A stretch of DNA of 64,000 bases, taken from a virus. How positions within the stretch are numbered: the stretch's first letter is position 1; each line of letters opens with the position of its first letter. This document shows, one piece after another, positions 10,126 through 46,569 of this stretch. Location of the stretch: the IMG/VR virus record IMGVR_UViG_3300031949_000019. One strand, given 5' to 3'. The notes beneath the pieces were generated by a model. It made no database searches and had not been told where the DNA came from. It saw nothing but the letters and a program-made list of their open reading frames with translations. The translations under genes were made by a program, and so were the position numbers.

Positions 10126-10154
10126 TCACTATTGCGCCCGTCTTTCAGTGAGTC

Positions 10155-10535
10155 TCAAAAACCGTTGAAAACTAGATCGGCAGTAGTAGCTCCACCTGGC
10201 GCGTACAGCCAAATCTTCGCAGGATCGACAATCCCTCGGCAGAAATCTTCAAGGTTAAACTTGACCGTCCCTGACGCTAAGACACCCTTATACAATCGCG
10301 GTGGCCCTGCCGCTGCGGCGTTGCGGACAAACTCATCATGGCCCACATACACATCAGCGGCAGGTAACAGACTCCCGCTATTTCCAGTGAACGAATCGAG
10401 CGATGGTACGGTGCTGATTGCGTTGTTAGCATCCGATTGGAATCCCCAGCCTGCTGTTTTCATTATTGTTTCCATTGAAGTAACAGTGCCGGGAATCGCC
10501 ACGTTCTCACTGAAAAGTTTTCTACTCGTTGTCAT
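10155..10535 (-). CDS. putative virion structural protein
   Basis: 126 aa, AAAGGAG RBS, in tail cluster. Confidence 0.6.
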   Translation of the reverse strand: MTTSRKLFSENVAIPGTVTSMETIMKTAGWGFQSDANNAISTVPSLDSFTGNSGSLLPAADVYVGHDEFVRNAAAAGPPRLYKGVLASGTVKFNLEDFCRGIVDPAKIWLYAPGGATTADLVFNGF

Positions 10536-10544
10536 ATTTCTCCT

Positions 10545-11168
10545 TTATGCGCCTGACGCTCCGCTTGCGCCGGATTTGCCGCTAGATCCGCTTGCCCCAC
10601 TAAATCCAGATGCTCCAGAAAACCCACTGACGCCTGAGTAACCTGAGATGCCGCTGTAACCCGAATACCCCGAATCGCCCTTCGGAATACTTTGAATCAA
10701 AGCAACCGTCGCGCTTGCTGTCAAATAGAAGGGATATGTTGCCCCAAACTGCGCGGCGCCCTGATTGAAAACATCAAGTTGATCCCATGTTGTTGTTGCT
10801 CCCAAACTCGCTGGGATCATCCATCCTGCATTGGCTTGCGGAAACCCAAAGATTATTACGCTTGCAACATCGTCCACATATAGCTGTCCGGTGAACCGTG
10901 ATGTTTGAACGTCTACTCCATCGTCCGTGGTACGGATAGTAAATTGTGGGATCGTAAGGAAACCATCGACATCAACTGAGCACTGAACGTCGTAAAAAAA
11001 TCCGGTCTGCCCGTTTCCCGGCATGATCGGCGTCACGCCATCGCTGTCCAAGAATCGCTGCGAATAATATCCTCGGATATGAGGATCGCCTTCGCCTATC
11101 CATATAGGCGGTTCCGGCACTGTCTGGAAAATTAGAATCTCAGCCATAAGAACTAAGGCGACCCGCAC
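10545..11168 (-). CDS. virion protein with C-terminal (Gly-X-Ser)n tail
   Basis: Ends GDSGYSGYSGISGYSGVSGFSGASGFSGASGSSGKSGASGASGA*; true start may be MAEIL at 11147. Confidence 0.8.
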   Translation of the reverse strand: MRVALVLMAEILIFQTVPEPPIWIGEGDPHIRGYYSQRFLDSDGVTPIMPGNGQTGFFYDVQCSVDVDGFLTIPQFTIRTTDDGVDVQTSRFTGQLYVDDVASVIIFGFPQANAGWMIPASLGATTTWDQLDVFNQGAAQFGATYPFYLTASATVALIQSIPKGDSGYSGYSGISGYSGVSGFSGASGFSGASGSSGKSGASGASGA

Positions 11169-11219
11169 GGGAGCAGGCCGCCTAATGGTGGAAAGGCGCA
11201 GCCAAGCAGCCCTTCTCAG

Positions 11220-11531
11220 TTACACCTTCGATCCGGTGATGTACCACTGTGATAAGCCGTCCGATTCCGCGTAGCCTACATTCCCGTCTTCAATGACCGT
11301 GGTGGCGTCGGCAGTAGCGAGTGTATCCGGGCTTGTCGGCCCAACTGTAGCGTCGCCTCCTGAGCCAACTATTCGGATGACATTGTTTCCCTGCTCAAGT
11401 GTGCAGAGACGCGCGAGGGGTAAAGTGATAGCTTTCGCCGCCGTAACCTTCACCGCGTCTACTGGCTCAGTCAGCACCAAGTCATCAGCAGTGGTGACTA
11501 TCTGTTGAAAAGGACTCCCAAATAACGGCAT
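11220..11531 (-). CDS. small virion protein, stand-alone copy of a ~100-aa TLPxA domain
   Basis: ITLPLARLC...W; paralogous to N-termini of 11601-12308 and 19380-20693. Confidence 0.7.
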   Translation of the reverse strand: MPLFGSPFQQIVTTADDLVLTEPVDAVKVTAAKAITLPLARLCTLEQGNNVIRIVGSGGDATVGPTSPDTLATADATTVIEDGNVGYAESDGLSQWYITGSKV

Positions 11532-11555
11532 AGCAATTCTCCTTGAAAATAGGCT

Positions 11556-11584
11556 AGAGGGGCGACCGCAAGCATCGCCCTTCT
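11556..11584 (-). terminator. intergenic hairpin, possible weak terminator
   Basis: AGAGGGGCGA / TCGCCCTTCT arms around CCGCAAGCA. Confidence 0.4.
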
Positions 11585-11600
11585 ATCCATTAACTCAGCG

Positions 11601-12308
11601 TTACGCTGCTGCGCCAGATACGCCTGAGAATCCAGAAGCTCCGCTGGCTCCAGATGCGCCTGACTCACCCGAAGCTCCAGAGAAGCCCGAGGTTCCGCTG
11701 AACCCAGAGGCTCCAGAGGCTCCAGACTCGCCTGAAACACCCGAGAACCCAGAGGTTCCGCTGAACCCTGAGATTCCGCTTGCTCCGCTTGCGCCTGACT
11801 CGCCAGATACTCCACTGAATCCTGACGTTCCGCTGAATCCACTGGTTCCGCTGGTTCCGCTGGTGCCAGAGGTTCCACTAGCTCCGCTAGCTCCACTGAA
11901 CCCTGAGATACCAGAGAATCCGCTGACCCCGCTGAATCCAGACGTACCGGAAGTACCAGAGAATCCTGAAACGCCAGCCGCGCCTGTTCCGCCAACGCCA
12001 GTCCATACCCCAGCTCCGTTACTGGTCATTAACGCCGTTTCACCCGGAAGCAATGAGCCAATGCCAATCAACGCGTCCGAGCCTTGAACTAAAATCGTCA
12101 CGGCCTGATCTGCCGTTGAGCTAGCACTGTTGATGATCTCTTTTTGGAATTGACTTTGGCCGATCATTCCCGGTAGGCAGGTTGCGGCTAATGGCAATGT
12201 AGCGTTCTTGCCAGACGTAATCGTGAAAGTCGCTACATCGTCAGACACGGTTAGCGTGTATGAGTCAGTCTTAGTGACCATCTTTGTGTAAGTTGAATAA
12301 AGCGGCAT
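11601..12308 (-). CDS. TLPxA-domain protein with C-terminal (Gly-X-Ser)n repeat
   Basis: About 105-aa globular N-terminus followed by about 40 G-X-S triplets to the stop. Confidence 0.85.
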   Translation of the reverse strand: MPLYSTYTKMVTKTDSYTLTVSDDVATFTITSGKNATLPLAATCLPGMIGQSQFQKEIINSASSTADQAVTILVQGSDALIGIGSLLPGETALMTSNGAGVWTGVGGTGAAGVSGFSGTSGTSGFSGVSGFSGISGFSGASGASGTSGTSGTSGTSGFSGTSGFSGVSGESGASGASGISGFSGTSGFSGVSGESGASGASGFSGTSGFSGASGESGASGASGASGFSGVSGAAA

Positions 12309-12320
12309 AATTTGTTTCTC

Positions 12321-12767
12321 CTAAAGCGACAAAGGTGCGGCGGCTCCGGCTATACCAGCCGCAGTCTTCCACGGGCTTTCGCTTTGCGTGACTGTGCCCT
12401 GACCTGAAGAACTCATTGTTTCGTTAGTACCGCGGGTGAGTCCTGCAAGTGCTAGATTCTTGGATTGATTTAATCGGTTTACGTCGTATGCGCCTTCGCG
12501 GGTTTGCTGTCCCGCCTGTTGCATTAACTCGCGTTGGCCGGAACGACGAATAGCATCCCGGATTTGCGGGGTCACGTAGCCCCCTGTCGGACTAGCTAGA
12601 GATTCATCTAATTGTCTTTCTTTTTCGCCTAAGCGATAACCAATGGAAGGATCAATCTGGGCTTTACCAGCGCGAGCGGCAATAATATCGGGTGTGTCTG
12701 GAACGGTCTGCGAGGAAGTCCCTGTTGAGGACTGCGTGGATTTCTGTTTTGTGTCGGACATTCCCAA
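12321..12767 (-). CDS. putative ejection / DNA transfer protein
   Basis: S/T/Q-rich N-terminus, helical middle, C-terminal SPWKTAAGIAGAAAP; follows a GNAT-like gene as in podovirus internal-protein modules. Confidence 0.55.
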   Translation of the reverse strand: MGMSDTKQKSTQSSTGTSSQTVPDTPDIIAARAGKAQIDPSIGYRLGEKERQLDESLASPTGGYVTPQIRDAIRRSGQRELMQQAGQQTREGAYDVNRLNQSKNLALAGLTRGTNETMSSSGQGTVTQSESPWKTAAGIAGAAAPLSL

Positions 12768-12863
12768 GTAGGGCGTTACCTTTGGGTTGCATATTTCACG
12801 AAATTCCGCTCGTCAGACACGGAGTTTAGTATCATATTGTCCTGAGTGCAAGGGAAATCTGCG

Positions 12864-13331
12864 TCAGGATGACCCGCTACTGGGTTGGCGTGTTATTTGG
12901 TAACGAATGAATGGCTTTTGCTGGAATTCCTTTTCTTCGCCGGGTGAGAATCCCAACGCTTCCAAGTATCCCTTTAGTGCGATGTTTCTTTTTGTCACCC
13001 ATGCACACAGTTCCTGCGCTCCGTTTTCAAAGAAGGCATCGCGTATCAGTTTGCCGCCTTCAATCAATATCTCACGCGATGTGCCCCGTTTTGATGTGAA
13101 GTGGGCCTCAAAATGCTGCTCTTTCCACTCGTACAAAAGGAACGCCGCACAGAACTGACCATTAAATACTCCAACTACAATTTGGTGGGGATCGTCAGCA
13201 ATAAAAGCTTCAAAGGACGCGCGGTCGGGCTGTACATGTTTCTTTGCCGCTCGCCACTTGTACGCCTCTTGGAAAAGATCGAGGTCAGCGGTCGGATCAA
13301 GCAGTTGTAATTCTAACTTAGACAAGGGCAA
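12864..13331 (-). CDS. GNAT-fold protein (T7 gp13-like)
   Basis: EAHF...AWVTKRNIALKGYLEALGF..GEE resembles GNAT motifs A/B. Confidence 0.65.
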   Translation of the reverse strand: MPLSKLELQLLDPTADLDLFQEAYKWRAAKKHVQPDRASFEAFIADDPHQIVVGVFNGQFCAAFLLYEWKEQHFEAHFTSKRGTSREILIEGGKLIRDAFFENGAQELCAWVTKRNIALKGYLEALGFSPGEEKEFQQKPFIRYQITRQPSSGSS

Positions 13332-13812
13332 GCCTTCGCGTTAGCGGTAAGGGAGCGAGTTTGTAGACGTGCGGCACTATGTTCTCGGCGTACACAAAAG
13401 CCGTTGCGTCATAGTTGATTTCTTCCCACGTCTGGTACTGGTGCTGCCTTAGATAGTCTCTCCCGCGAATCAAATTGATATTTTCAGGATAGCCCCAAAC
13501 TGTAGGGTCACTCGGCCCCCACAGAACGATGCCGGGTTTCAATTTCTCGCAATGGCAGAAGTGGGCGAAGAAATTATCCACTGCGATCCACGTCGAACAG
13601 CCGTTCACCAAAGCTCGCAGGTCTACATAGGACAAGTTCAGGTAACAGTCCATTACACCTTCGATGCGATCCTCGCCGGCGACTCCAATCTGAATTACTT
13701 CGTAGCCATCGCGCTTCAGCAATGAGACAAGTTTTGGGAAGTAGGGATAATTCTTCGGGTTCTGATTTCCTGACCGGAGCTTTGAGCTGTAAGGGGAGAT
13801 AATGATGGTCAT
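13318..13812 (-). CDS. glycosyltransferase family 9-like, C-terminal Rossmann domain only
   Basis: IIISPYS...KNYP...VIQIG...LRALVNGCSTWIAVDNFFAH...GIVLWGPSDP..WGYP; start ATG 13812 overlaps upstream stop (ATGA). Confidence 0.8.
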   Translation of the reverse strand: MTIIISPYSSKLRSGNQNPKNYPYFPKLVSLLKRDGYEVIQIGVAGEDRIEGVMDCYLNLSYVDLRALVNGCSTWIAVDNFFAHFCHCEKLKPGIVLWGPSDPTVWGYPENINLIRGRDYLRQHQYQTWEEINYDATAFVYAENIVPHVYKLAPLPLTRRLALV

Positions 13813-15512
13813 TTCCAGAACGCCAACATGGCTTCCGTCATCGGCCGCTTCCAATTATTCCGCGCCATCCAAGCGTACAAATTTGAGTCAGAAAATCTTG
13901 CCCCAAGTCTTTGTTGGGCTTCAGCAATCGAGATGATCGGAATATCCTGATCGTCAAAGATTCCTTCATGGCTAACAGCGAGAACTAGACCACGTTCTTT
14001 ATGAATCTCTTTGAGTTGCGGCAAGATACTGAGGGCTGCAAAATGGTCGCCAATTCCTGCGTCCAAAACAACGAGCTTCGGTGAGTTATCTTCAACCCCA
14101 CACGATGCCAGCCATTCTCTAAATTTGGCGTCGTCTTGCGCCCACAAACTGCCATCGTTGAACGTTCTTACTCCACCCGTGCTTTGCTGGAGATGCCAAA
14201 CCGTAATCGTAGGATCAACAATCAACTTGTATCCGGCGCGCTTCAGTTTCATACTGAACCAACTGTCTTCGCGGAAACTAACATTGGTGAGCTTTGGATA
14301 GCCGCCAACTTCGCGGCCAGCCTTTACTCTGAAAAGATAGCAACTGTAAAGATGTTCCACGTCTCGTAGTCGATCACCATCAACAAACCACTGCAAGTTT
14401 GTTCCGTTGAAAATGTCTTCAACTTTCCCCTCAACGCCTTTTGGTAACGGAGCGATATGTCCCGGTTGCAGAACGAGCGGAGCAACCGCGCCTACCGTTT
14501 CATCCTCCATTACCTTCAACAGTTTCTCGATAATGTCAGGCTCAAGGATATGATCGTCATCGACACGGAGTAAAAAGTCGGTCGTACAATTCTCAAGGGC
14601 ATGTTGATGGTTTGCGGCAAGACCTAATCTCGGAGTCTTGAATGTCTCGAACGGAATTCCCGCGTCTTGGAGTAGGTGAAATAGTTCCGTATAAGGTGAG
14701 ACTCCTCGCAGTTCGTTTTGCTCACCATCGTCATAGAGAACTAGCTTGTCAGGCTTGCGAGTTTGAGTTGCAACCGAGGCGATGGCCATTGGAAGCGTGG
14801 TGAAGTAGCGATTGAGAGTTGAAATTTCAACCGTAACCGTTCGCGACTTTGTGACACGCTTCGCTGGTTCGTACTGGAATCGGACGCCCCGCTCCGTGAA
14901 TTCAGTTGCATTAGACGCAATCTCATTCATGGCCGCGAGGTTTTCACTCACATATTCCCTGTATTTACTTTCTATGGCTGACTGCACGGTGCCTGCTTGC
15001 TTGATTCCCGCAAAGTACAAATCAGCATGATCATTTCGGTAGCCGAGATAAGACTTGGAAAACAGTGTCGCGGGTAAGGCTGAGGCAAAATCTTCGGTTG
15101 AAATGTTCCGATAGTAATCAGAGGTAGACGGACTGGCCCATCCCCCATCTGTGCGGATTGTGCCGTGCTCTGCGCGCGTTGGGCCAGCACAGGTGATAAG
15201 CAATAGCCCCCCGGGCTTCAGTAGAGCGTGCATCTGCTTCAGCGACTCGTCCCATCGGCTATCGTGCTCCAATGCCTCGGTACTGATAACCACGTCCCAA
15301 AGGCCGTCTCCCCGAACTTGTGTGACGTGCTTTACCGCGTCAACGCCCGGGCCTTCGCCTAAGTCGATTCCGTGGTACGTGCAATCAGCGAAGTACTGGC
15401 GCACACTTCCGTTAATATCCAGCGAGCCGACTTCAAGAACCTTCTTGCCTGAAAAGAATTCAGGATATTCTCGCTTTACGCTGATAACGAATTGGTTTGC
15501 TTCTCGATGCAA
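13809..15512 (-). CDS. three-domain fusion: class I SAM methyltransferase + GT2 glycosyltransferase + GT9 N-terminal domain
   Basis: KVLEVGSLDING...DVVISTEALEHD (MTase); TVEISTLNR...LYDDG...FLLRVDDD (GT-A DxD); LDAGIGDHFAALSILPQLK (GT9 GIGD motif). Confidence 0.88.
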   Translation of the reverse strand: MHREANQFVISVKREYPEFFSGKKVLEVGSLDINGSVRQYFADCTYHGIDLGEGPGVDAVKHVTQVRGDGLWDVVISTEALEHDSRWDESLKQMHALLKPGGLLLITCAGPTRAEHGTIRTDGGWASPSTSDYYRNISTEDFASALPATLFSKSYLGYRNDHADLYFAGIKQAGTVQSAIESKYREYVSENLAAMNEIASNATEFTERGVRFQYEPAKRVTKSRTVTVEISTLNRYFTTLPMAIASVATQTRKPDKLVLYDDGEQNELRGVSPYTELFHLLQDAGIPFETFKTPRLGLAANHQHALENCTTDFLLRVDDDHILEPDIIEKLLKVMEDETVGAVAPLVLQPGHIAPLPKGVEGKVEDIFNGTNLQWFVDGDRLRDVEHLYSCYLFRVKAGREVGGYPKLTNVSFREDSWFSMKLKRAGYKLIVDPTITVWHLQQSTGGVRTFNDGSLWAQDDAKFREWLASCGVEDNSPKLVVLDAGIGDHFAALSILPQLKEIHKERGLVLAVSHEGIFDDQDIPIISIAEAQQRLGARFSDSNLYAWMARNNWKRPMTEAMLAFWK

Positions 15513-16822
15513 AAGAACCCTCCGAATCCTTCTACTGACTCAGTGATATTTGGTTTGTCTAATGCTTCCCAGATGCCTGTTTTGTCTGGTACGCGACTAA
15601 CCAGTAATTCGTTCACAGCTTGAACGACACCAGGATAGTCGGAACTGTAGTCGTGACCGCATAGTAATCCGCCTTCCACAAGCACTTGTTGCCAATTGAG
15701 AATATCTGCCCTGATCGCGTCGTAGTGATGATCGCCGTCTATGAAGATCATCGAAACGCCAATACCCTTTAGGAATTCCGCCGCATTCGCACTGCTTGTT
15801 CTTAGTGGGACAACCCTGCCTTCCAGTATGTGATCGGAAAGATTTCCGCAGAACTGAAGGTAAGCCGCATCCCCGTCACGTTCTTTTGCGGACTCAAACG
15901 CCGGATCGCCATTTGCTGCCCATGCGTCTACCGCAAACAACCTGCCACCTTCGGGAAGATTATCCGCGAGTGCTCGCGTGCTGCGTCCGTACCACGAACC
16001 AATTTCACAGATTATAGGGTGAAGTCTTGCTTGCGTTGCCAGCCAAATCAATTCATCGTGGCCCATCCAACCTTCAATTTGTTCTGCTCGCGCAATATTC
16101 ACGGGGCCATACCTCGCTCTTAGTTTTGCTTTATTTCGTTCAACTACTTCTACATGGTTCGGGAGTTGAGATAACGTGGTTTCCGCGTCATGCATCACCG
16201 GAAAGTTGCCAACCCATCGGTGACGCTTCCACTCTGGTAGATGTTCGCTGTCTGGAACTTCAACTAACTTGCATTCTTCACCAACTGGAACTTGTACCCA
16301 CTTCCATCCCGCTCGTTCAGCTCTGATAGTGAGGTCGATATCTTCCCCGTAGAACGGCGAGAGGTCTTCGTCCAATACCCCGACTTTATCCAGCATTGTT
16401 CGCCGGAGCATTGCGCAGAAAAAGATAATAAATTCATGTTGAGTATCGTTATCCCACAGTTTATGTGAGCCTGTGATTCCTACTTGTGGATCGGAGAATG
16501 GCCCAGAGAGTAAGTCGAGCCAATGGTTCTTTGGTTGGTCTAAAAGAACGCAGTCGTCGTTAAGTAGGCAAATTAAGTCGCAATGGCTCTCCTTGATTCC
16601 GGCGTTTACTGCTTTTGAAAATCCGATGGGCTTCTCAAACCAGAGCGTTATTCCATCCAGCCCTAAGTCCTGAAGGACGTTGCGAGTCTCAGGAGGTGCA
16701 CCGTTGGCCACAATGACTATTTCGCACTGCTCAAGGTCGGTATGCTGTTTGAGTGATTCGAGACAGGTGCGGAGGCCAGAGGAATTCAAAAACGAGGGGA
16801 TTACGATCGAGAAGCGCGGCAT
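15476..16822 (-). CDS. GT2 glycosyltransferase fused to class I SAM methyltransferase (Methyltransf_24-like)
   Basis: FSIVIPS...VIVANG...GFSKAVNAGI...LLNDD...YGEDIDL; C-terminal EIGSWYGRST...IFIDGDHHY...GGLLCGHDY. Confidence 0.9.
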   Translation of the reverse strand: MPRFSIVIPSFLNSSGLRTCLESLKQHTDLEQCEIVIVANGAPPETRNVLQDLGLDGITLWFEKPIGFSKAVNAGIKESHCDLICLLNDDCVLLDQPKNHWLDLLSGPFSDPQVGITGSHKLWDNDTQHEFIIFFCAMLRRTMLDKVGVLDEDLSPFYGEDIDLTIRAERAGWKWVQVPVGEECKLVEVPDSEHLPEWKRHRWVGNFPVMHDAETTLSQLPNHVEVVERNKAKLRARYGPVNIARAEQIEGWMGHDELIWLATQARLHPIICEIGSWYGRSTRALADNLPEGGRLFAVDAWAANGDPAFESAKERDGDAAYLQFCGNLSDHILEGRVVPLRTSSANAAEFLKGIGVSMIFIDGDHHYDAIRADILNWQQVLVEGGLLCGHDYSSDYPGVVQAVNELLVSRVPDKTGIWEALDKPNITESVEGFGGFFCIEKQTNSLSA

Positions 16823-17015
16823 CCTGCGTACTTTATCATTGGAATAACGTGGAAGTCACGCGGAATGTCGTGCTTCTAACTTGTTGGCAAACTGAATCCA
16901 TAAGTATTTGTTCAAGTAGGTGTTCACGATTGGCCCACGCTCTGTTGCTTGATCCAGCACACGGCTGGTACATAATTGGGGCTTCCACAACCCTTATCTA
17001 CTAATTGAAGTTCAC

Positions 17016-17156
17016 CTAGAGAGGCTTGTGTAACTTTCCATCCTGTATCTTCTGCGCGACAGCAAAGATCGCAATCTTGATGATTGATTCACAACAGGGA
17101 ATAAGACAGTCTATCAAATGACGGTAGGTGGGAATTACAATACTGAATTTAGACAT
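17016..17156 (-). pseudogene. truncated GT2 N-terminus fused to unrelated tail (46 aa)
   Basis: Hand translation MSKFSIVIPTYRHLIDCLIPCCESIIK-IAIFAVAQKIQDGKLHKPL*; first 27 aa parallel the downstream GT2 start MPRFSIVIPSF...LRTCLESLK. Confidence 0.75.
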
Positions 17157-17162
17157 GACTCT

Positions 17163-19022
17163 CTAACGCATCCGAATGTTAGTAAAACCGTGGCTCAGGC
17201 CACGGGCAGCAGTGGTGCGCGTTTCAACCTCAAAATAATAATCCCCTATCGATCCTGTTGGTAAGTTGGTTGTATGAGTTGCCACCAATGAAAAGCTAAC
17301 CCCAACATCGGTAGAAATATAAAACTTGATGGAGGATGTACTTTCTACGACTATCACAAGAATATAAGCTGTGCTAAGTGAAACCGTAATACCTGTATCG
17401 GTAATAGTTCCACCTCCTGAGTTATCGTTAGTAAATGCCTGCCAAGTGGTGTCGCTCGCAACGGTACTGAAACGAAATCCCATCCCATCTAATGTTGGAT
17501 CATCTGAACCTGCCGGATTGCTGCTAAAACTGCCAACCCATATTCGCGTTGATGTAATGTCAGTAAAGGTCATCAACTTAGTAAATATCTGAGGTAGCCA
17601 GTCCACCCAGATAAACGCACCATTGTTAAAATTAAATCCCGCCGTGTTACCAACTGAGGCTCCCGTATTGCGCCGAAGCCAAGGCCCACTTGCGTTATCT
17701 ATATTGGCAGAAACATCAAAAAAAGCAGTGATAGCGCAACCATAAGCGTCAGTGGCGGTACTGTTAGGCCGAGCGTTGACACCCATTAGACGATAGGTTT
17801 CAAACTGCCCACCAATGAACGTACTGCTTGCACCTGTACCGCTAAAACCACTAAAGCCGGATGTTCCTATACCTGAGAATCCAGAGTACCCACTGATTCC
17901 GGAATCACCAGAGAAGCCAGAGACGCCGCTGTACCCGCTTTCACCAGAAGCCCCGCTAGCCCCGGATGCGCCACTCGATCCCGGCCCTCCGGCCTCTGCG
18001 GAAAAACCAGAAGTGCCGGAGAACCCTGATACGCCGCTAAATCCTGAAATACCCGAGTAGCCTGACTCTCCCGATGCTCCGCTGAATCCGCTGGTGCCTG
18101 TTCCAGAAGCACCACTCGCCCCGGAGAAGCCTGACTCTCCACTAAAACCTGAAGCTCCTGAAACCCCAGACTCGCCGGAGAATCCAGAAACGCCAGAGGT
18201 TCCTGAAGTTCCCACTGCTCCGCTAGTTCCAGAAAACCCACTGACGCCGGACGCTCCACTCGCCCCACTTGCCCCTGAAGCGGCTATAGCTCCCGCTGCG
18301 CCTGAAACACCTGAGTATCCACTCTGGCCCGAAGCCCCAGATGCGCCAGAAAACCCACTCTTACCCGGCTTGTTTCCTGAGAATCCAGAGAATCCACTTT
18401 TACCAGAAGTCCCTGAATAGCCACTGAAGCCTGATTTACCAGATGCCCCGCTCGCTCCGCTTGCGCCTGATGCGCCCGACGTTCCCGAGAATCCGCTTGT
18501 ACCCGAGAAACCGGAAGTTCCTGAAAATCCGCTAACCCCAGAAAACCCGGATATTCCACTCGCGCCTGACGCCCCACTTTCACCGGGGGTAGCCCCGGAA
18601 ACACCTGAAGCCCCTGATGCGCCTGACGATCCAACATTGTCGCCGGAGAAACCACTAACACCTGAGAAGCCTGAAGTTCCTGTGGCCCCACTAACCCCGG
18701 AGGTGCCAACTCCTGACGTACCAGACGCCCCAGAGGCGCCTGATTCTCCCGACGTGCCTGAGAAGCCGGACACCCCGCTAAATCCGCTTGTGCCGGGGTT
18801 GTCGCCACTGAAGCCTGAGACTCCAGAGTATCCTGAAACGCCACTCTCACCGGAGAAGCCAACACCGCTTGCACCACTAAATCCAGATGCGCCAGAGTAG
18901 CCGGACGTACCAGGATTGTCGCCGCTAAATCCTGAAACACCTGACGCACCACTTGCGCCGTCGCTGCCCGGAATGCCGACTTCAACTATCCGAATATTGG
19001 TGTCGTCAGAAATTATCGTCAA
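17163..19022 (-). CDS. long (Gly-X-Ser)n collagen-like fibre protein with C-terminal globular (possibly lectin-like) domain
   Basis: About 120 G-X-S triplets with short interruptions, then about 220-aa beta-rich domain. Confidence 0.85.
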   Translation of the reverse strand: MTIISDDTNIRIVEVGIPGSDGASGASGVSGFSGDNPGTSGYSGASGFSGASGVGFSGESGVSGYSGVSGFSGDNPGTSGFSGVSGFSGTSGESGASGASGTSGVGTSGVSGATGTSGFSGVSGFSGDNVGSSGASGASGVSGATPGESGASGASGISGFSGVSGFSGTSGFSGTSGFSGTSGASGASGASGASGKSGFSGYSGTSGKSGFSGFSGNKPGKSGFSGASGASGQSGYSGVSGAAGAIAASGASGASGASGVSGFSGTSGAVGTSGTSGVSGFSGESGVSGASGFSGESGFSGASGASGTGTSGFSGASGESGYSGISGFSGVSGFSGTSGFSAEAGGPGSSGASGASGASGESGYSGVSGFSGDSGISGYSGFSGIGTSGFSGFSGTGASSTFIGGQFETYRLMGVNARPNSTATDAYGCAITAFFDVSANIDNASGPWLRRNTGASVGNTAGFNFNNGAFIWVDWLPQIFTKLMTFTDITSTRIWVGSFSSNPAGSDDPTLDGMGFRFSTVASDTTWQAFTNDNSGGGTITDTGITVSLSTAYILVIVVESTSSIKFYISTDVGVSFSLVATHTTNLPTGSIGDYYFEVETRTTAARGLSHGFTNIRMR

Positions 19023-19025
19023 ATT

Positions 19026-19361
19026 TCAACAGTCCTTTGCGAACATCAATCCTGAGATAATGCAGGGGATCGTAAAGCCACTCGTATCAACTACGCTGAC
19101 GTGGTAATGTCCCGCGTCCCACGTCAATGCCGTAGTGGCAGCTTCATCCAGATTAAACCGCCAAACACCGGGGCTTGCCTCGACGAACAAGTTGTTGCCT
19201 GTGTTCCAAGTAAACGCTGAAGCACCGTTAGGCTCACCAATAAATTCGGCTGAGAGCACGGGGATGACAACACCGTCAGCATCGGTGAACGTAATTGTGG
19301 GTTGATAAATCCCGCCTCGGGTAATTACCACGGTGAAACTAGCAATGAATACATCGGCCAT
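19026..19361 (-). CDS. putative fibre-anchoring / BppU-like beta-sandwich protein
   Basis: ITRGG...TITFTDADG...WRFNL..A.T..L.W..G.Y pattern; precedes fibre gene. Confidence 0.5.
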   Translation of the reverse strand: MADVFIASFTVVITRGGIYQPTITFTDADGVVIPVLSAEFIGEPNGASAFTWNTGNNLFVEASPGVWRFNLDEAATTALTWDAGHYHVSVVDTSGFTIPCIISGLMFAKDC

Positions 19362-19379
19362 ATTTAAGGTTCTCTTAAG

Positions 19380-20693
19380 CTATTGTGCTTCCCAGACGAA
19401 GTTCTGCGCGGCGGCAGTCCCGGTCTCCGTCCATACTATATCGAATGTTGTAGCCCCCACGTTCTGAATTATTCCCGACACCGTGTTTCCGCTTGAAGTT
19501 GCAAGGAACACCGCAAAGGTCGATGATGTTTGGCTTGCCTGTGCTGCCGTTCCCGCCGAGGTCATATACACACATCTGTTTCCACTTGAATTCCAGATGC
19601 CCATAGAAAACGGAGTCGGAGTAGCAGAGTTGCTATTTACAAACGCCCCAATACCGTAGATGCGAACAATTACGGGTGTCTTGCCCAAACCATGGGTGAT
19701 TGTCTGCGTGCCCGTGGCCGTGGGTGATGCTTCTACGCCAGCAGTCGATAAGGGAGTACCAGAGAGTCCACTCGTTCCACTGAAGCCTGATGTACCACTT
19801 GCGCCCGCTGCCCCGGAAGTGCCTGATGTTCCGGCACCCGTCGCACCTGAAACTCCCGATGTCCCCTGACTACCTGTTTCACCACTGAATCCGCTAATCC
19901 CTGAAAATCCACTTATTCCCGATGCGCCCGTTGCGCCAGATGTCCCGCTCGTTCCTGCTCCTGTCGCTCCCGACACTCCCGAAGCACCCGCAACACCACT
20001 GTCCCCAGAGAACCCTGATTCTCCACTAAAACCTGAAACCCCACTTGTTCCTGAGAATCCAGACGTGCCAGAATCGCCAGAAGCACCACTCGCTCCGTCA
20101 ATTCCTGTGGCCCCTGAAATACCGCTCATCCCCGAATAGCCACTTTGTCCGCTAGTTCCCGACGCTCCATCGGCACCGGCGCCCCCAGCCTCACCTGAAA
20201 TACCTGATTCCCCGCTGAAACCAGATGTTCCACTCGTACCCGCTCCTGTAGCCCCACTTGTTCCAGAAGTACCCGATGTACCTTGCGTACCCATCGCCCC
20301 TGACGTGCCGCTTGCGCCGATAGCACCTGAAACCCCAGACTCGCCTTGAGTTCCAGTCGCTCCGCTAACACCCGAAAATCCTGACTCCCCACCCACACCA
20401 GTACTGAGTGTGGTAATTATCGCCGTCCATGTATTAACCTCGTCACTTGACAGAGCCATGGTTTGGTTAGGCTGTAGTGTTGGTGTGCCAACAAAAATAT
20501 CTCCACCCTGAATTTCAAGGGTTAACACATCAAGAGATTGCGCACTATTGACAACGGTTTTTTGGGCTTGAGCACCTATGCAGGCTGAGGCCGCAGGCAA
20601 CGTGCCAGTCGCAGCAATCGAAAGAACGAAGCCTATGTAATCGTTATCTGGCACGATTGTATAGTCAGCAGTTTCGATTACGCGAGATGCCAT
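19380..20693 (-). CDS. TLPxA domain + (Gly-X-Ser)n repeat + C-terminal tail-fibre tip domain
   Basis: N-terminal TLPAASAC domain, about 70 triplets, C-terminal TQTITHGLGKTP typical of fibre tips. Confidence 0.85.
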   Translation of the reverse strand: MASRVIETADYTIVPDNDYIGFVLSIAATGTLPAASACIGAQAQKTVVNSAQSLDVLTLEIQGGDIFVGTPTLQPNQTMALSSDEVNTWTAIITTLSTGVGGESGFSGVSGATGTQGESGVSGAIGASGTSGAMGTQGTSGTSGTSGATGAGTSGTSGFSGESGISGEAGGAGADGASGTSGQSGYSGMSGISGATGIDGASGASGDSGTSGFSGTSGVSGFSGESGFSGDSGVAGASGVSGATGAGTSGTSGATGASGISGFSGISGFSGETGSQGTSGVSGATGAGTSGTSGAAGASGTSGFSGTSGLSGTPLSTAGVEASPTATGTQTITHGLGKTPVIVRIYGIGAFVNSNSATPTPFSMGIWNSSGNRCVYMTSAGTAAQASQTSSTFAVFLATSSGNTVSGIIQNVGATTFDIVWTETGTAAAQNFVWEAQ

Positions 20694-20695
20694 CT

Positions 20696-21532
20696 TTAAC
20701 CTTTCGGGAAAATGTCAACAATCATTGCGTAAACAACAATGTGATTGTCAACAATCTGATTTTGGTCGATACTGATGGCTTGAATAGAAGTCCAATCAAA
20801 TCCAGCGACATTTACCGCTGCAATCGCAAGATCAAGACTTCCGCCAGCCATCGCAATAATGTTTGCGTGAGTTGAGTCAATATAATGCAGCCATGCCTCA
20901 GTAATTTGCAGACTTGCTGCGCCAGAGTCTGTAGTTGCTGCTACCGTGACCCCGTTTACTATAGTTGTGCCGGTGATAGGCGATCCAGTATCACCCTTCC
21001 AGTAGGATCGCACCCTAAGACGATCATCAACTTGTGTTAAAGTATTAGCGGGCAGATTCGCGGAAACTACAACTTGGGCTGTGTTGTCTACGCCCGCCGT
21101 GCCTGTGCCGCTAATGTAGGTAGCCGATGAGCTAAGGTGAACACCGATAGGAAGAACTCCAGAGAACCCACTGGCCCCGCTGAAACCACTTGTCCCGGAA
21201 TCCCCACTTGCTCCTGAATACCCTGAAACACCGCTTGTTCCAGAAAAACCAGATATACCTGAAAATCCGCTAGCCCCAGAAAAACCTGATGCACCCGAAA
21301 ATCCAGATACACCAGAAAATCCAGATGTGCCCTCTGCACCAACTGCCCCGCTAACGCCTGAAAATCCAGACTGCCCAGAAAATCCGCTTGTGCCGGAGGT
21401 TCCGCTTGCGCCTGAAGCACCCGGATTAGCACCAGAGAAACCAGATTTACCAGAGGCTCCTGAAGTTCCAGAAGTACCTACCCCAGATGCGCCACTCAGA
21501 CCGATATTGATTTCTATTATGCGAATCGGCAT
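20696..21532 (-). CDS. (Gly-X-Ser)n repeat protein with C-terminal globular domain
   Basis: About 37 triplets after MPIRIIEINIG. Confidence 0.82.
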   Translation of the reverse strand: MPIRIIEINIGLSGASGVGTSGTSGASGKSGFSGANPGASGASGTSGTSGFSGQSGFSGVSGAVGAEGTSGFSGVSGFSGASGFSGASGFSGISGFSGTSGVSGYSGASGDSGTSGFSGASGFSGVLPIGVHLSSSATYISGTGTAGVDNTAQVVVSANLPANTLTQVDDRLRVRSYWKGDTGSPITGTTIVNGVTVAATTDSGAASLQITEAWLHYIDSTHANIIAMAGGSLDLAIAAVNVAGFDWTSIQAISIDQNQIVDNHIVVYAMIVDIFPKG

Positions 21533-22359: not shown

Positions 22360-22826
22360 CTTCTAACACCTTGATCTGAAATTTCCATACAAATCTGATC
22401 GAGACGATCTCTCGCTGCGTTCCCTGTATCGTCACCAGAGACACGGCAAGTTTGTAACGTCCCTACGATGTTAATAGGCTTGCGCTTCGTCTGTGTTACG
22501 TGCGTGGTATCAGGAAACGACTGAGGTCGTGTAATGTTCGTAGTGTTCGTTCTTACTCCATCTTCTAAGTCGGCAACGACAATAGGTTGCTCCACGTCAT
22601 ACGCATATCCCATTGCCTCACAGTTAGTCACACGGCCAACCAAGTAGATTGACTTTGTGTTTTTCGTGGTCAACTCATTGCCGCTGTCTGACAACTGAGG
22701 GACAATCCACCACGCACTGCCTTCGCCTGCGTCAAACGTAAGTGTGTCTGCCGTTCCCGCTGTGGTTGTATCCACAAACGGAACCATAATTTCGGCAACT
22801 ACTTGTGTGACGTTTACCTGACTCAT
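22356..22826 (-). CDS. putative tail protein (may be a detached C-terminal part of the nozzle protein)
   Basis: 156 aa, beta-rich; WWIVPQLSDSGNE...K.I...GR pattern. Confidence 0.5.
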   Translation of the reverse strand: MSQVNVTQVVAEIMVPFVDTTTAGTADTLTFDAGEGSAWWIVPQLSDSGNELTTKNTKSIYLVGRVTNCEAMGYAYDVEQPIVVADLEDGVRTNTTNITRPQSFPDTTHVTQTKRKPINIVGTLQTCRVSGDDTGNAARDRLDQICMEISDQGVRR

Positions 22827-25423
22827 ATTCCAAACCGAGTAATTAGCGCGGATTCTATGCTGGCTAAATCCGCTGGTTGCAACTCAATCGACCAAATCTT
22901 TGTGAATGGTACTTGCCCCTGCGGTGCGTCGTTTCCATCCCCTCCGTCAAACCCTGCTCCGCTCTGAAGGAAATTCAACTGATTGTTTATTATCGGCTCA
23001 GTGCCAACCGCGTAGGTGTCCGAAGCCTCTTCCACGCTATTGATGCGTATTGAAACTGTGGCACCGTCGCAAATAACCGTCACTAAATAGGTGGTATTCT
23101 CAGCGATCACTGTAACGGCTTGAGCGACGCAGATAGTCGAGCCAACCGAGTTGACTCGCTGAAAATAAATGAGTCCCGTGCCACCCGGATCTCCGCTGCC
23201 CCCCAAAGCCAATAGCCAACCCGTTAAATCTCCTCCTGTATTTCCTTTGCGGTCAATAATCTTCGGCTCGCCGTTCTGCCAACAGCCTTGGAATTGCGTG
23301 AGATTAAACACGCACATTAAAGTAAAGGCGCTGGGTAGAAACAAGTCGCTGGCAGTTCCCGTCCCCGTGTTCAGGTAGCCCGCGTTGCGAGTTGTTGGTA
23401 GACAGTCCAGCGGTTCAGTAAACCCAACGATACTAGGCTCGTTGTTGACGGCAGGTGAGCTGGTATCAAACGTCTGTTCTACCCAGTCTCCCGAAATCAC
23501 ATGGGCCAGAGAGAGCGTGTACCCGTGAATTCCGGTTTCCACGATTGAGGTAATTGGATCACCGTCACCATAAGTTCCGGTATAATTCGCCGCGTCTACC
23601 TCAAAGATTACAGCTTCTTCAGGTGGTGGTGGAGGTGGCGGAGGCACTGGTGCGTCGAGTGCATAGCCAAACTCGCTTCCGTTGAACTTCGCTGTTGACC
23701 ACACACCTGTATCCGGGGCAGTTTCATAAGGGAACTGATAGATCAAGTAATCTGTTGACGGCGTAATTCCGTCGCTTTCACTGTCAGTAGAACTTTGTCT
23801 CGCCACCGCTCCTACTGTATGACCTGCTTCGTCTACCTTTGTGCAAAGATTGACCACCACGGCATCAACACTGGCCGATGTTGTATCCTGCGTGGCAAAC
23901 GTATCCTTACCCCCAGTCACAATCTGCGCCCGCGCTTTTACCGACACGCAGGATGTACCCCAAGTATCCGGCGCTGCCATCGTTGTACTGGGAGGGATTT
24001 CACCGCCAGTGGTAGCCTTCAATTTCGATGAGACGTTGATTAGACCACTTGAGTGACGGTTGATATAACCAGACGGGGTTGCAGGCGCCTGGGATTCAGT
24101 CATTTCAATAGCGATGATCAGATCATTGTCTGTAAGGCTGTTTACCTGCGCAAAAGTAATGGTATCGGTTGGAGGCGGCTGTGTTGTTAGTGCCCCTCCC
24201 ACGCTGGCAGAACTGCCCTCAATAGGGATAGCCTGATTCACTCCAGTAAAGCAGAGCACGACAATTTCATTGACTTGTTCTAATGGCTCCCCGTTATGAG
24301 GCAGAGAAGTTAGAAACGTCCAACTCGCTGGTTCGGACGCTCCAGCCAATTTCATAACCACAGTAGAACACCAAAGAATCGCGCTATAAGAACCGGGGAC
24401 AACAAATGGATCGAACAAAAATAGGCCGCCAACCCCTCCTCCTTCACTTGATGTGGGTATTGGGGTGCCAGTAGTGGTAAAGGGTGATGCGTCGGGAACG
24501 ACGTTGCTGCTTTCCGAACTCCCGCTAGTGCGAATGATCAGCACCATTAAATCGCCTTCGGTAATTCCTGCTGGAGCGGAGACAGTGGGCGAGAGGGTAG
24601 AACTGGACACGCTAACAAATGTTGGCGCGGAACTTGGATCGGTATCAGGAGCAAAGTTGTATGACGTATCGCCATCAGGCGGGTTTTCATCTACGTTACC
24701 GTAGTTTGGAATTCCCGGCACGGGCACCCAGTTGGTGTAAAAACCTGCCCCATTGGGAAAATAGGCTCGGAGGTGTTTATTCCCCTGAAAGTCGTTAAAA
24801 GCCGAGCCTGTGTCATCACAGGTATAGAAGTCATCCCAACTCGCGGTCGGCGGTACCGCGTCTGTAAGCGTATTGCCATCTGCCCCGTAGCCTACAACGG
24901 AGAGCAATCCTGTGCCGCCATTTTGTGTGTCCCCAGTGAAGTCAATAATGGTAGTGACGGTTGTAGAATCCAACCAGAGTTTTATTACAACGCGGCCAGC
25001 AACATCGTCGATAAAACCTTGAACCTCAATATAGTAGTACGTTCCAACTTCAACAGGGTCAATAGCGCTCGCTAATAATGCTCCCGCCTGTGTGCCCAAA
25101 TACGCCTCAATAATTCCAATGCTATCGACCGTGATAGCAATATGAGGCGTAAAGTCCGATTCCATAAACTGAAGAATCGTCGCTCGTCCTGATGGTGGAA
25201 GTGCCCCAAGTCGGAATGCGATCCCCTTGAATAAAGTGAGTGATTCCACCGTCTCGCCAAAGAGTTTAAGTTCTTCCAGGAAGTAAGTTGTCCCGTAAAA
25301 AGTGACTGCTCCCGAACTGCTATTGCGACCCGCGCCCGCACTGATTATCGCCGTCGATGCAGCCGCGTACTTCTGCGTGATGTCGTTATAGTAATCAAAA
25401 CTGTCAGTGCTAATTAGTGCCAT
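22823..25423 (-). CDS. multi-domain tail spike/adhesin with poly-Pro linker and C-terminal LamG/ConA-like domain
   Basis: 866 aa; PVPPPPPPPPEE linker; FTLMCVFNL...YLVTVICDGATVSIRINSVE LamG-like strands. Confidence 0.7.
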   Translation of the reverse strand: MALISTDSFDYYNDITQKYAAASTAIISAGAGRNSSSGAVTFYGTTYFLEELKLFGETVESLTLFKGIAFRLGALPPSGRATILQFMESDFTPHIAITVDSIGIIEAYLGTQAGALLASAIDPVEVGTYYYIEVQGFIDDVAGRVVIKLWLDSTTVTTIIDFTGDTQNGGTGLLSVVGYGADGNTLTDAVPPTASWDDFYTCDDTGSAFNDFQGNKHLRAYFPNGAGFYTNWVPVPGIPNYGNVDENPPDGDTSYNFAPDTDPSSAPTFVSVSSSTLSPTVSAPAGITEGDLMVLIIRTSGSSESSNVVPDASPFTTTGTPIPTSSEGGGVGGLFLFDPFVVPGSYSAILWCSTVVMKLAGASEPASWTFLTSLPHNGEPLEQVNEIVVLCFTGVNQAIPIEGSSASVGGALTTQPPPTDTITFAQVNSLTDNDLIIAIEMTESQAPATPSGYINRHSSGLINVSSKLKATTGGEIPPSTTMAAPDTWGTSCVSVKARAQIVTGGKDTFATQDTTSASVDAVVVNLCTKVDEAGHTVGAVARQSSTDSESDGITPSTDYLIYQFPYETAPDTGVWSTAKFNGSEFGYALDAPVPPPPPPPPEEAVIFEVDAANYTGTYGDGDPITSIVETGIHGYTLSLAHVISGDWVEQTFDTSSPAVNNEPSIVGFTEPLDCLPTTRNAGYLNTGTGTASDLFLPSAFTLMCVFNLTQFQGCWQNGEPKIIDRKGNTGGDLTGWLLALGGSGDPGGTGLIYFQRVNSVGSTICVAQAVTVIAENTTYLVTVICDGATVSIRINSVEEASDTYAVGTEPIINNQLNFLQSGAGFDGGDGNDAPQGQVPFTKIWSIELQPADLASIESALITRFGI

Positions 25424-44932: not shown

Positions 44933-45319
44933 TTACCTACTCGCCATCCCGCACGACTGCTCGTCACGGCCCGCAAACATTTTCAACCGACGTTGGTGTA
45001 TCGGCGTTCGGAATTGAAATCCCATTGAACCCTGAGCGCGGATCGTCATACAGCAATTACCCGGCTCACTCCCACACGTCGGGCACTTCGTTGTTGCCAC
45101 TACCTGATCGTCGGCAATTATCACTTCAGGTTTGGGTGCGGGAGAGGCAAGCACATCGTCGCGCGTCCACGGAACATCGTTAGCTCTTAGCCATTCCGTG
45201 ACCAGTTTTATCACATCTTCCGCGCACGTTACCTTTGTATCACGCGAGGCCGCACGGCCAAGTTCAATAGAGAGAATCGTGCGAGTCACGCCGCCATGCT
45301 CAAATAGCCCGATCTTCAT
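44933..45319 (-). CDS. hypothetical cargo protein with CPTCG zinc ribbon
   Basis: Start MKIGLFE overlapping upstream TAA (TAATG); CPTCGSEPG..C...H. Confidence 0.65.
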   Translation of the reverse strand: MKIGLFEHGGVTRTILSIELGRAASRDTKVTCAEDVIKLVTEWLRANDVPWTRDDVLASPAPKPEVIIADDQVVATTKCPTCGSEPGNCCMTIRAQGSMGFQFRTPIHQRRLKMFAGRDEQSCGMASR

Positions 45320-46569
45320 TACTCTCCTTGCTGTGCAGCCTGTGCTTCGCGCTCGCGCTTGGCTTTTGTGGCCCAATGCTCCTTTGCTGGAATCACTGGA
45401 TTAGGTAACGGATCATCAATCACCGGGATTTCACCGGCCATGAACGCCCCACTTGCCCCGCTCGCTCCTGACGCACCGGATGCGCCTGACGCTCCGGCTT
45501 GGCCGGGAGCACCTGTCTCAGCCTTCATCGTGTCTTCGTCGATTTGCACTCCAGTCGCGGTGCGGTTGTCAAACACTGGCTCCAACACCGCTGCGGCGCG
45601 GCGGTCGGCTTCGATACGTGCTTGTTTTTCCTCGATTGTCGTTTGCATCCATGCCTTGAACATCTCGCGGAGTTCCGGATCAGTTCCCGCACTTGCAGCC
45701 TTCTGAATCTCGCGATCCTGTCGCGCCATGCCCAGCTGTTCGAGTAATACAAGGTCGGTCGCGGTATAGCGCGGAATGTAGCCTTGTGTCTTTGAACCGA
45801 TCTCTCTCATTTTTGCGTGAGAGTTTTGAATAGTTGCTGAGGCGTAGTCGCGAAATGCCGTGAACGATTCCATGAACTTGTCTACGATTCCCCGGATCAT
45901 CGTGTGAGCAGTGGCATCATCAAGCAACTGTCCGATGTCATCGAGCAGAACCGGGACAAACGGGTACTGCGGGAAGATCGTTCGCTGGATTTCCCAGACG
46001 GTTGGGTCAACGTCAACCCTCAATCCTCCGCCTACGTCTATCGAGCGAGGAACGTAATTCTGAGCTTTCAGGTCTGAGAGTTCAACGATGCCAAGCCGTG
46101 TGTTCTCCATGATGTTGTGATGGTCGAGAATCCAGCGGATTTGGTCGCCGGGATAAGCGAGTTTACCCATCATGCTGCCCACCGGGGAAGGTGTGGTGCT
46201 GATTCCTGTACCGCGCGCCGGAGGTAACATGGGCGGAACATAGCCGGGAGGTATCGGTGTTGGGAAATAACTGCCATCACCCTCACTGGCTTTCTTTACC
46301 CAGTCTGCCGGTCGTGGATCGTGGGTATCCTTCAGGAGTGGAGTAATGCGCCCTTTACGCAGGAAGTTCTTCACGTAGCGAAGGCAGGGATTTGTGACTT
46401 CCAGCCCTCCCGCTTTTGTCCACGGGCGATCTGAAGCCGTTTGCGGATCGATTAAACTCCCGACAAACGTCAGATAGCGTGGTGCCTCGTTGTCGAGGTT
46501 GGATTGAGGTGGCTCAAATATCCGGCCCTCAGTTGCAATACCTTCAGAAACTTCCATTACTTGACTCAC
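45319..46569 (-). CDS. conserved head-region hypothetical protein with short GASGASG tract
   Basis: 416 aa in capsid operon. Confidence 0.75.
   Translation of the reverse strand: MSQVMEVSEGIATEGRIFEPPQSNLDNEAPRYLTFVGSLIDPQTASDRPWTKAGGLEVTNPCLRYVKNFLRKGRITPLLKDTHDPRPADWVKKASEGDGSYFPTPIPPGYVPPMLPPARGTGISTTPSPVGSMMGKLAYPGDQIRWILDHHNIMENTRLGIVELSDLKAQNYVPRSIDVGGGLRVDVDPTVWEIQRTIFPQYPFVPVLLDDIGQLLDDATAHTMIRGIVDKFMESFTAFRDYASATIQNSHAKMREIGSKTQGYIPRYTATDLVLLEQLGMARQDREIQKAASAGTDPELREMFKAWMQTTIEEKQARIEADRRAAAVLEPVFDNRTATGVQIDEDTMKAETGAPGQAGASGASGASGASGASGAFMAGEIPVIDDPLPNPVIPAKEHWATKAKREREAQAAQQGE

Follow-up and report, generated by a model that had tools for sequence, protein, structure and literature searches.

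Five repeat-bearing genes of a tailed-phage late operon

In the virus record IMGVR_UViG_3300031949_000019, a stretch of 64,000 nucleotides that was analysed whole and is referred to here as the window, five genes encode proteins built around tracts of Gly-X-Ser triplets. These genes, named A to E, lie on the minus strand exactly where a first-pass annotation, made from the DNA letters and without database searches, had placed five repeat-bearing open reading frames (ORFs) (Table 1). They stand in a tightly packed minus-strand operon that continues via large structural genes to the large terminase and the major head protein, and they belong to the late operon of a tailed phage. Four genes of an enzyme block, including glycosyltransferase (GT) genes, are inserted between B and C (12864-16822). 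The sole public sequencing run that contains DNA of the window is labelled as a soil metagenome and is possibly its source; no RNA run is listed. We read A to E as phage fibres with a trimeric, collagen-like Gly-X-Ser shaft whose Ser residues would be O-glycosylated by the enzyme cassette, and give this joint reading a probability of about 0.6.

Counted in runs of at least four, Gly-X-Y triplets number 15 in A, 43 in B, 118 in C, 70 in D and 36 in E, and those with Ser at Y number 14, 41, 112, 50 and 35, respectively. Ser takes the Y position in 86-93% of the triplets in A, B, C and E, and in 67% in D, where the other Y residues are Thr, Ala, Gly and Gln. The longest unbroken runs comprise 15 triplets in A, 43 in B, up to 24 in C, up to 31 in D and 30 in E. 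Gly makes up 33.2-34.7% of each of the five tracts and is almost never found at X or Y. Over 885 repeat residues, the composition is 33.7% Gly, 28.4% Ser, 10.3% Ala, 7.0% Thr and 6.7% Phe, with 0.9% Pro, 0.8% Lys plus Arg and 3.2% Asp plus Glu (about 4% charged), and a single Lys-Gly-Asp. The commonest of 281 triplets are GFS (56), GAS (54), GTS (42), GVS (28), GES (14) and GYS (12), and bulky Phe, Tyr, Val and Ile fill about 40% of the X positions. The tracts are interrupted by 16 breaks, eight of them Gly-x-Gly, six with three residues between the Gly residues and two with five. The three-residue breaks are of the type G-(D/A/N)-(N/T/K)-(P/V)-G, such as GDNPG and GANPG, and nearly all of the Pro in the tracts lies inside breaks. 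Eleven breaks are in C, whose first third is interrupted every 15-30 residues (5-10 triplets) by G-x-N-P-G or G-x-G.

At the DNA level, all six Ser codons are in use (TCN 64%, AGY 36%, two boxes that no single synonymous change can interconvert) together with all four Gly codons, and the repeat copies are about 60-75% alike, plus a few short local tandem units. Because the codons are varied and the DNA copies have diverged, it is the protein sequence of the repeat that is maintained. Nor is the repeat a product of chance: a nucleotide motif coding for G-[FY]-S-G-x-S-G-[FY]-S-G has 27 matches in the window, all in A to E, and none in 100 shuffles. Most of what the first-pass annotation had said of the repeat agrees with these figures: its poverty in Pro, the X residues (mostly A, F, T, V, E, Y and I), the recurrence of both G-x-G and G-x-N-P-G type breaks, and selection on the protein deduced from synonymous codon variation. 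Its triplet counts (14, 40, 120, 70 and 37) are right for Gly-X-Y but too high for Gly-X-Ser in D, and the Ser that it called fixed at Y falls to 67% in D.

ORFs in other phases also run over the tracts, at 10132-10641 (plus), 11498-11995 (minus), 17815-18900 (plus, three ORFs), 17867-18985 (minus, two ORFs), 20126-20398 (minus) and 21088-21432 (minus); on the plus strand the repeat reads, for example, as PEKPEVPENPE. They are by-products of a stop-free repeat with a period of nine nucleotides and should therefore not be called genes.

The domains that flank the repeats are modular. Three paralogous N-terminal domains of about 100 residues, in B, in D and as a stand-alone gene, share 33-36% identity and 14 invariant columns in an alignment; a profile of this domain gave chance-level matches only in the PDB, and in a protein cluster atlas the N- and C-domains matched unnamed viral clusters only. 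D and E have unrelated C-domains. A model of the C-terminal tip of C, built from an alignment of homologues, is a jelly roll with a predicted local distance difference test (pLDDT) score of 88.8 that matches SO2946 and legume lectins best; this ConA/legume-lectin-like fold makes a sugar-binding fibre tip plausible. The tip has 19 homologues, which sit either on fibre shafts other than collagen, in one case together with an Mtd_N domain, or on Pro-rich collagen shafts (P0012, P0013 and P0019; for example, GPTGATGAQGPAGMDGEEGPEGPQGPPGPTG).

Two further observations concern neighbouring structural genes. Upstream of the fibre block, an 866-aa protein matches phrog_2448 at its N-terminus and, weakly, Laminin_G_3 (ConA-like) at its C-terminus, and might provide the fibre operon with a second lectin-like module; no related locus was found for it in IMG/VR. 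In addition, the ORF that bears a sixth, short tract sits between the terminase and major head genes, and its product might decorate the head or form a fibre associated with it, using the same repeat.

Table 1. Positions and make-up of the repeat-bearing genes, the enzyme block and related features in the window
Feature	Position	Strand	Length	Description
A	10545-11168	minus	207 aa	N-terminal domain 1-162, then 15 triplets up to the C-terminus; tract 10548-10682
Stand-alone N-domain	11220-11531	minus	103 aa	Paralogue of the B/D N-terminal domain, without repeat, just upstream of A
B	11601-12308	minus	235 aa	N-domain 1-105 (11994-12308), then a single unbroken 43-triplet run to the C-terminus; tract 11604-11993
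155-aa gene	12864-13331	minus	155 aa	End of enzyme block; no family match; one homologue in the 120 fetched loci
Small GT9-like gene	13318-13854	minus		Similar to GT9 heptosyltransferases in their C-terminal half; follows the first GT2 gene directly
First GT2	13809-15512	minus	567 aa	Methyltransferase and GT2 fusion; part searched, 220-567
Second GT2	15476-16822	minus	448 aa	GT2 and Methyltransf_24 fusion
C	17163-19022	minus	619 aa	Short N-terminal peptide IRIVEVG; 380-residue repeat domain 17838-18977; ConA-like tip 17166-17837
111-aa gene	19026-19361	minus	111 aa	Between D and C; a 44% identical counterpart precedes the single fibre gene of L067
D	19380-20693	minus	437 aa	N-domain 1-98 (20400-20693); 216-residue repeat 19752-20399; C-domain 315-437 (19383-19751)
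E	20696-21532	minus	278 aa	N-terminal peptide IRIIEINIG; 114-residue repeat 21152-21493; C-domain 128-278 (20699-21151)
866-aa gene	22823-25423		866 aa	Upstream of the fibre block
Sixth tract	45442-45513	minus	8 triplets	GAPGQAGASGASGASGASGASGAF, five Gly-Ala-Ser; near the C-terminus of ORF 45319-46569

Collagen family membership and occurrence of the repeat

All five products exceed the cut-off of the Pfam Collagen family (PF01391; 27.2 bits), with 29.4 bits for A, 68.2 for B, 143.4 for C, 96.9 for D and 53.1 for E, and their PHROG matches are collagen-like tail fibre and minor tail families (phrog_6320, 193.9 bits for C). The best 60 of 74 matches of B to PDB sequences are collagens, collagen peptides, BclA (1wck, a weak match at E 0.002) and a few chance hits. 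These family scores are driven largely by the Gly period, so they are weak evidence of common descent and gene context, the late operon, weighs more. The tracts also have flanking domains that might nucleate or cap a trimer, and the tip of C is shared with Pro-rich collagen fibres. One PDB match was set aside: the 'spindle/axial fibril' 8zxl has the sequence (GAPGSQGAPGLQ)n and aligns at Gly only.

In composition, A to E depart from the collagens described in viruses and bacteria, which carry Pro at X, Thr, Gln or Lys at Y and charge pairs and, in the case of the EPclPs, are devoid of aromatic residues (PMC3368898, PMC8968730, PMC11923368). The side-tail-fibre proteins EPclA and EPclB from prophages of E. 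coli O157:H7 resemble the window fibres in their modular organisation, with a Gly-X-Y shaft between globular N- and C-modules, and EPclA has been found to be a trimer with a collagen signal in circular dichroism and a dumbbell shape in electron microscopy (PMC3368898). However, Pro takes about half of the X positions in the EPclPs, Lys, Arg, Gln or Thr stand at Y, about 22% of the residues are charged, Phe, Tyr, Trp, His and Cys are missing, and recombinant EPclA is not glycosylated (PMC3368898), whereas the window tracts combine 0.9% Pro and about 4% charge with Ser at about 84% of Y and Phe plus Tyr at 24% of X, and are linked to a GT cassette. Since the stabilisers known from collagens (imino acids at X or Y, Lys-Gly-Asp/Glu, and Thr or Gln at Y) are absent, A to E are a variant of the collagen repeat proteins and not a plain member. 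The evidence supports a distinct composition class of collagen-like fibre, with Ser at Y, aromatic or aliphatic residues at X, and neither Pro nor charge pairs.

This class extends well beyond the window. A phmmer search with B against 1.84 billion representatives returned 46,015 proteins at E <=0.001, and 41 of the best 150 matches have Ser in at least half of the Y positions, almost no Pro, and Tyr, Phe, Ile, Thr or Ala at X. A scan of IMG/VR by a Gly-[FY]-[ST..] DNA pattern gave at least 120 stretches, and all locus counts in this text refer to the 120 listed. Among these, 61 are of the Gly-X-Ser type, with a mean of 87% Ser at Y, 0.8% Pro and 50% aromatic residues at X, and 44 are of the Gly-X-Thr type; the longest unbroken Gly-X-Y run reaches 177 triplets (531 residues). 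Eight of the listed loci are contigs from metagenome-assembled genomes of giant viruses (L006, L009, L017, L033, L038, L039, L054 and L058). All eight are Gly-X-Thr, with Phe or Tyr as the leading X residue in six and Pro or Asp in L006 and L058, and homologues of the first GT2 and of the GT9-like gene were found in none of them; the giant-virus repeat is the Thr counterpart of the Ser type in phages.

A cultured example is found in P19250A, a siphovirus of a freshwater methylotroph of the Methylophilaceae, which shares with the window the repeat type, its position in the tail-fibre region and a homologue of the window GT2 downstream, but has a single very long fibre. Its gene P19250A_0023 (KX815270.1; L124:4750-8355) encodes 1201 aa with 281 triplets, 225 of them with Ser at Y, and four Pro; the X residues are Y/I/F/A/E/L/W, and the longest runs comprise 138 and 127 triplets. 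The gene lies four genes downstream of host-specificity protein J and is currently annotated as 'tail length tape-measure protein', which is probably wrong for what appears to be a 281-triplet collagen-like fibre gene. The searchable papers that discuss this phage do not mention the repeat. Aromatic X residues are commoner in P19250A (46%) and occur in adjacent triplets. In the window tracts, aromatic X residues in adjacent triplets have a frequency of 0.06 against a base rate of 0.24, and in every second triplet of 0.47; the resulting six-residue super-period G-F-S-G-x-S is absent in P19250A.

A close relative in IMG/VR, UViG_3300000440_000131 (L067), has a single fibre gene (1075-2541) in place of three. 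Its product consists of a C-like N-terminal end, a Gly-X-Ser shaft interrupted by GANPG five times and a tip like that of D, which shows tip swapping by recombination within the repeat. Together with the varied shafts on which the C tip is found, this chimera indicates that the repeat acts as an exchangeable shaft, and in known phage fibres collagen and coiled-coil segments behave in this way (PMC3368898).

The Pro-free, charge-free Ser/aromatic variant is widespread and apparently undescribed. A literature search for Gly-X-Ser or proline-free phage collagen gave only lipase motifs and general collagen papers, which is not proof of an undescribed class. Furthermore, neither the repeat DNA of C (blastn) nor the C protein (tblastn) had a match in 50,697 phage records, a comparison in which the low-complexity filter and the codon variety hide the repeat.

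A glycosyltransferase cassette linked to Ser at Y

Two GT2 genes, both fused to methyltransferase domains, and a small GT9-like gene make up the cassette in the enzyme block. A profile of the small protein weakly matches residues 180-293 of WaaC (lipopolysaccharide heptosyltransferase I; 2h1f, E 0.005); no protein-heptosyltransferase structure is among the matches listed, and its NCBIfam matches are far below the cut-offs. A profile of the searched part of the first GT2 had no match in the PDB at E 0.1.

The association of these enzymes with the repeat was assessed in loci that had been fetched by the repeat pattern alone, 61 Gly-X-Ser loci versus 59 Gly-X-Thr, mixed or other loci of similar lengths. 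Homologues of the first GT2 occur in 36/61 Gly-X-Ser loci and 0/59 others (Fisher 2e-14), those of the small GT9-like protein in 32/61 and 0/59 (Fisher 1.9e-12), and those of the second GT2 in 23/61 and 1/59 (Fisher 2.9e-07). The 36 homologues of the first GT2 fall into 16 clusters at 70% identity and 6 at 50%, so the association does not come from one clone. In L012, L043, L047, L052, L064 and others, a GT2 gene of about 321 aa abuts or overlaps a GT9-like gene of about 147 aa, and P19250A has a GT2 and small-gene pair right after its fibre gene; as this layout is kept in many unrelated contigs and in P19250A, it is not a frameshift of the window. The P19250A homologue of the first GT2, gene 0025, stands two genes after 0023 and is 30% identical over 341 residues (E 2e-44), and in L067 a 67%-identical copy of the window GT2-methyltransferase gene directly follows the fibre gene. 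The cassette adjoins Gly-X-Ser fibre genes in the window, P19250A and L067.

Since the cassette tracks fibres with Ser at Y and not those with Thr at Y, the simplest explanation is that the Ser residues are its substrate. From this association, the odds lean towards O-glycosylation of the Gly-X-Ser fibres by the cassette, and the putative acceptor of the transferases is probably fibre Ser. Precedents for such a role come from Thr. The peptide (Gly-Pro-Thr)10 remains a random coil as long as its Thr residues lack galactose (PMC11923368), and in the cuticle collagen of a vent worm, glycosylated Thr at Y stabilises the helix, while BclA also bears glycosylated Thr at Y in its collagen region (PMC11923368, PMC8968730). 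Like the window fibres, the vent-worm collagen and Ac-(Gly-Pro-Thr(Gal))10 have a hydroxy amino acid at Y, and there a sugar, not hydroxyproline, provides the stability (PMC11923368); they differ in having Thr in place of Ser, in keeping Pro at X and in that their glycosylation has been demonstrated, whereas that of the window fibres is presumed from the linked genes.

The exosporium protein BclA of Bacillus anthracis resembles C and E in its short N-terminal peptide, collagen-like region, C-terminal beta-sandwich and hydroxy amino acid at Y, and its collagen region is O-glycosylated (PMC8968730). According to Freeman et al. in 2023, mycobacteriophages reportedly encode GTs that modify their own capsid and tail-tube subunits. 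These targets are not collagen-like fibres, and the enzymes have not been shown to be related to the window cassette. BclA itself is a bacterial spore protein of (Gly-Pro-Thr)n with a TNF/C1q-like tip, whereas the tip of C is ConA-like.

Alternatively, the shaft could be a triple helix without sugars, in which contacts of Ser hydroxyls with bound water, together with those of aromatic residues across chains or adjacent fibres, suffice for stability, and the cassette acts elsewhere, for example on the host envelope, the capsid or DNA-linked sugars. Water networks at polar Y residues stabilise Pro-poor bacterial collagens (PMC8968730), and about 40% of the Gly-X-Ser loci have no cassette gene within the DNA fetched. 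Nevertheless, the first GT2 is found in 36/61 Gly-X-Ser loci against 0/59 others, the cassette lies inside the fibre operon of the window and immediately behind the fibre gene in P19250A and L067, and its specificity for Ser at Y would not be expected if its role had nothing to do with the fibre. We therefore consider an unglycosylated shaft unlikely. That glycosylation is also the source of helix stability appears, from the analysis as a whole, less probable than glycosylation itself.

Shaft conformation and a model of the fibres

Two conformations had been put forward by the first-pass annotation for what it called a distinct fibre type, a designation borne out by the composition: a modified triple helix, or a bundle of polyglycine-II (PGII) helices with Phe/Tyr packing, possibly binding ice or surfaces. 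The cassette link, the strongest functional lead, was missing from its account. The modified triple helix is the best-fitting of its proposals, with Gly at exactly one third and long unbroken runs, and the sequence makes it probable that the Gly-X-Ser tract forms a collagen-type triple helix. In a PGII bundle, the chain would fold back into an antiparallel stack of polyproline-II (PPII) helices as in snow-flea antifreeze protein or gp38 of phage S16. Such bundles consist of short antiparallel helices joined by turns, with more than one third Gly, inner helices that are all Gly, and turns rich in Gly, Asn, Thr and Pro (bioRxiv 10.1101/2023.11.25.568672). The window tracts share with them a period-3 Gly and a Gly-rich PPII-type backbone, gp38 is likewise part of a phage fibre (its tip), and the breaks at every 5-10 triplets in the first third of C resemble turn sequences.

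However, a three-chain collagen helix needs one third Gly and a bundle needs more, so the Gly content of the tracts (33.2-34.7%; 33.7% overall) argues against a bundle. In place of compact short helices, the tracts run unbroken and free of turns for 129 residues in B, 93 in D and 90 in E, for 414 and 381 residues in P19250A and for up to 531 in IMG/VR relatives, and about 40% of their X positions are bulky Phe, Tyr, Val or Ile. No antifreeze, gp38 or Obg chain appears in the best 60 of 74 PDB matches to B, and the tip domain of C is also borne by ordinary Pro-rich collagen. For ice or surface binding no supporting sign was seen: the sequencing run is labelled soil and the same repeat type occurs in the phage of a freshwater methylotroph, so a cold habitat is not indicated. 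The PGII bundle is thus highly improbable.

Another possibility is that the tract has no defined helix and is an extended, densely O-glycosylated, mucin-like tether, with Gly-X-Ser as the recognition motif of the transferase. The strong link to a dedicated GT cassette and the absence of all known collagen stabilisers would fit such a spacer, as would the lack of confidence in the AlphaFold2 monomer model, though a monomer cannot show a trimer. Against it, the Gly period runs free of slips over dozens to 177 triplets in lineages whose enzymes are only 30-40% identical, and Gly-X-Thr tracts with the same aromatic X residues keep a strict Gly period without the cassette. The breaks match the one-residue (G1G) type of interruption that collagens have, a solvated mucin-like spacer would seldom have bulky hydrophobic residues at X, and phage fibres are trimeric as a rule (PMC3368898). 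A helix-free spacer is therefore doubtful.

Several considerations weigh against a glycosylated triple-helical fibre. Host-guest scales of triple-helix propensity give low values to Phe and Tyr at X, as well as to Ser at Y, so that without modification the helix might be only marginally stable, and the known collagen stabilisers are missing. G-x-N-P-G is a good turn former, which makes a fold-back in the first third of C conceivable. The case for the triple helix is one of sequence logic, that for the presence of A to E in the virion comes from gene context only, and that for fibre Ser as the acceptor of the transferases is indirect. As for the cassette, shared ancestry of the loci inflates the p-value of the association, the roughly 40% of Gly-X-Ser loci that have no cassette gene are explained in part by short loci, and L003 has two Gly-X-Ser fibres with GT absent within 12 kb. 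Structure prediction is neutral here: a three-copy prediction of E scored 0.00, with the chains folded without alignment and without controls, and gives no evidence either way, and a single-sequence AlphaFold2 monomer of E has a mean pLDDT of 32.5 and is of no use even for the C-domain.

With these points in mind, the reading that we prefer, a glycosylated triple-helical shaft, can be laid out as follows. A to E would serve a tailed soil phage as fibres or whiskers, with the (Gly-X-Ser)n tract as the shaft. Three chains would wind into a triple helix with Gly along its axis and a surface formed by the Ser hydroxyls and the side chains of X, and at 0.286 nm per residue the shafts would measure about 13 nm in A, 37 nm in B, 109 nm in C, 62 nm in D and 33 nm in E. 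Exchangeable modules would flank the shafts. Among them are the short IRI(V/I)E-type N-terminal peptide of C and E, which presumably attaches to the virion, and the domain of about 100 residues at the N-terminus of B and D, also present as a stand-alone copy. Distal binding domains would be provided by the ConA-like lectin fold in C and by other beta-rich domains in D and E, and the G-x-G and G-x-N-P-G breaks are probably hinges. Ser would be retained at Y because this is the most exposed position, where it most likely accepts an O-linked sugar, with methylation of the sugar, from the cassette of GT2, GT9-like and methyltransferase enzymes. The glycan could then replace the stability that other collagens draw from Pro, hydroxyproline and Lys-Gly-Asp/Glu salt bridges, and may shield the fibre.

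A more far-reaching version is tentative, and we do not favour it: the tracts might represent a third build of collagen, free of imino acids and salt bridges, which folds only after (methylated) sugars have been placed on every Ser at Y. Stability would then come from a sugar-aromatic clamp between glycosylated Ser at Y and Phe or Tyr at X of an adjacent chain, arranged in the Y-Gly-X geometry that Lys-Gly-Glu salt bridges also have.

In the prevailing view, a collagen triple helix depends on imino acids, on charge pairs, or on Thr that is glycosylated or hydrated. A survey from 2025 argued that collagens of all domains of life and of viruses converged on Lys-Gly-Asp/Glu salt bridges (PMC11923368), and a peptide study from 2026 raises the question of whether a helix that lacks Pro has any stability (PMC13673506). 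Natural aromatic tracts without Pro or charge, tens to hundreds of triplets long, make this question testable, and the dedicated enzyme cassette is pointed to as the missing stabiliser. They also offer a collagen scaffold for materials that is free of Pro and independent of hydroxylase. If the proposed reading is true, fibre glycosylation would be common in environmental phages, with a bearing on host recognition, particle stability and gene annotation; and if the third build is real, many environmental phages would carry sugar-coated collagen fibres up to hundreds of nm long.

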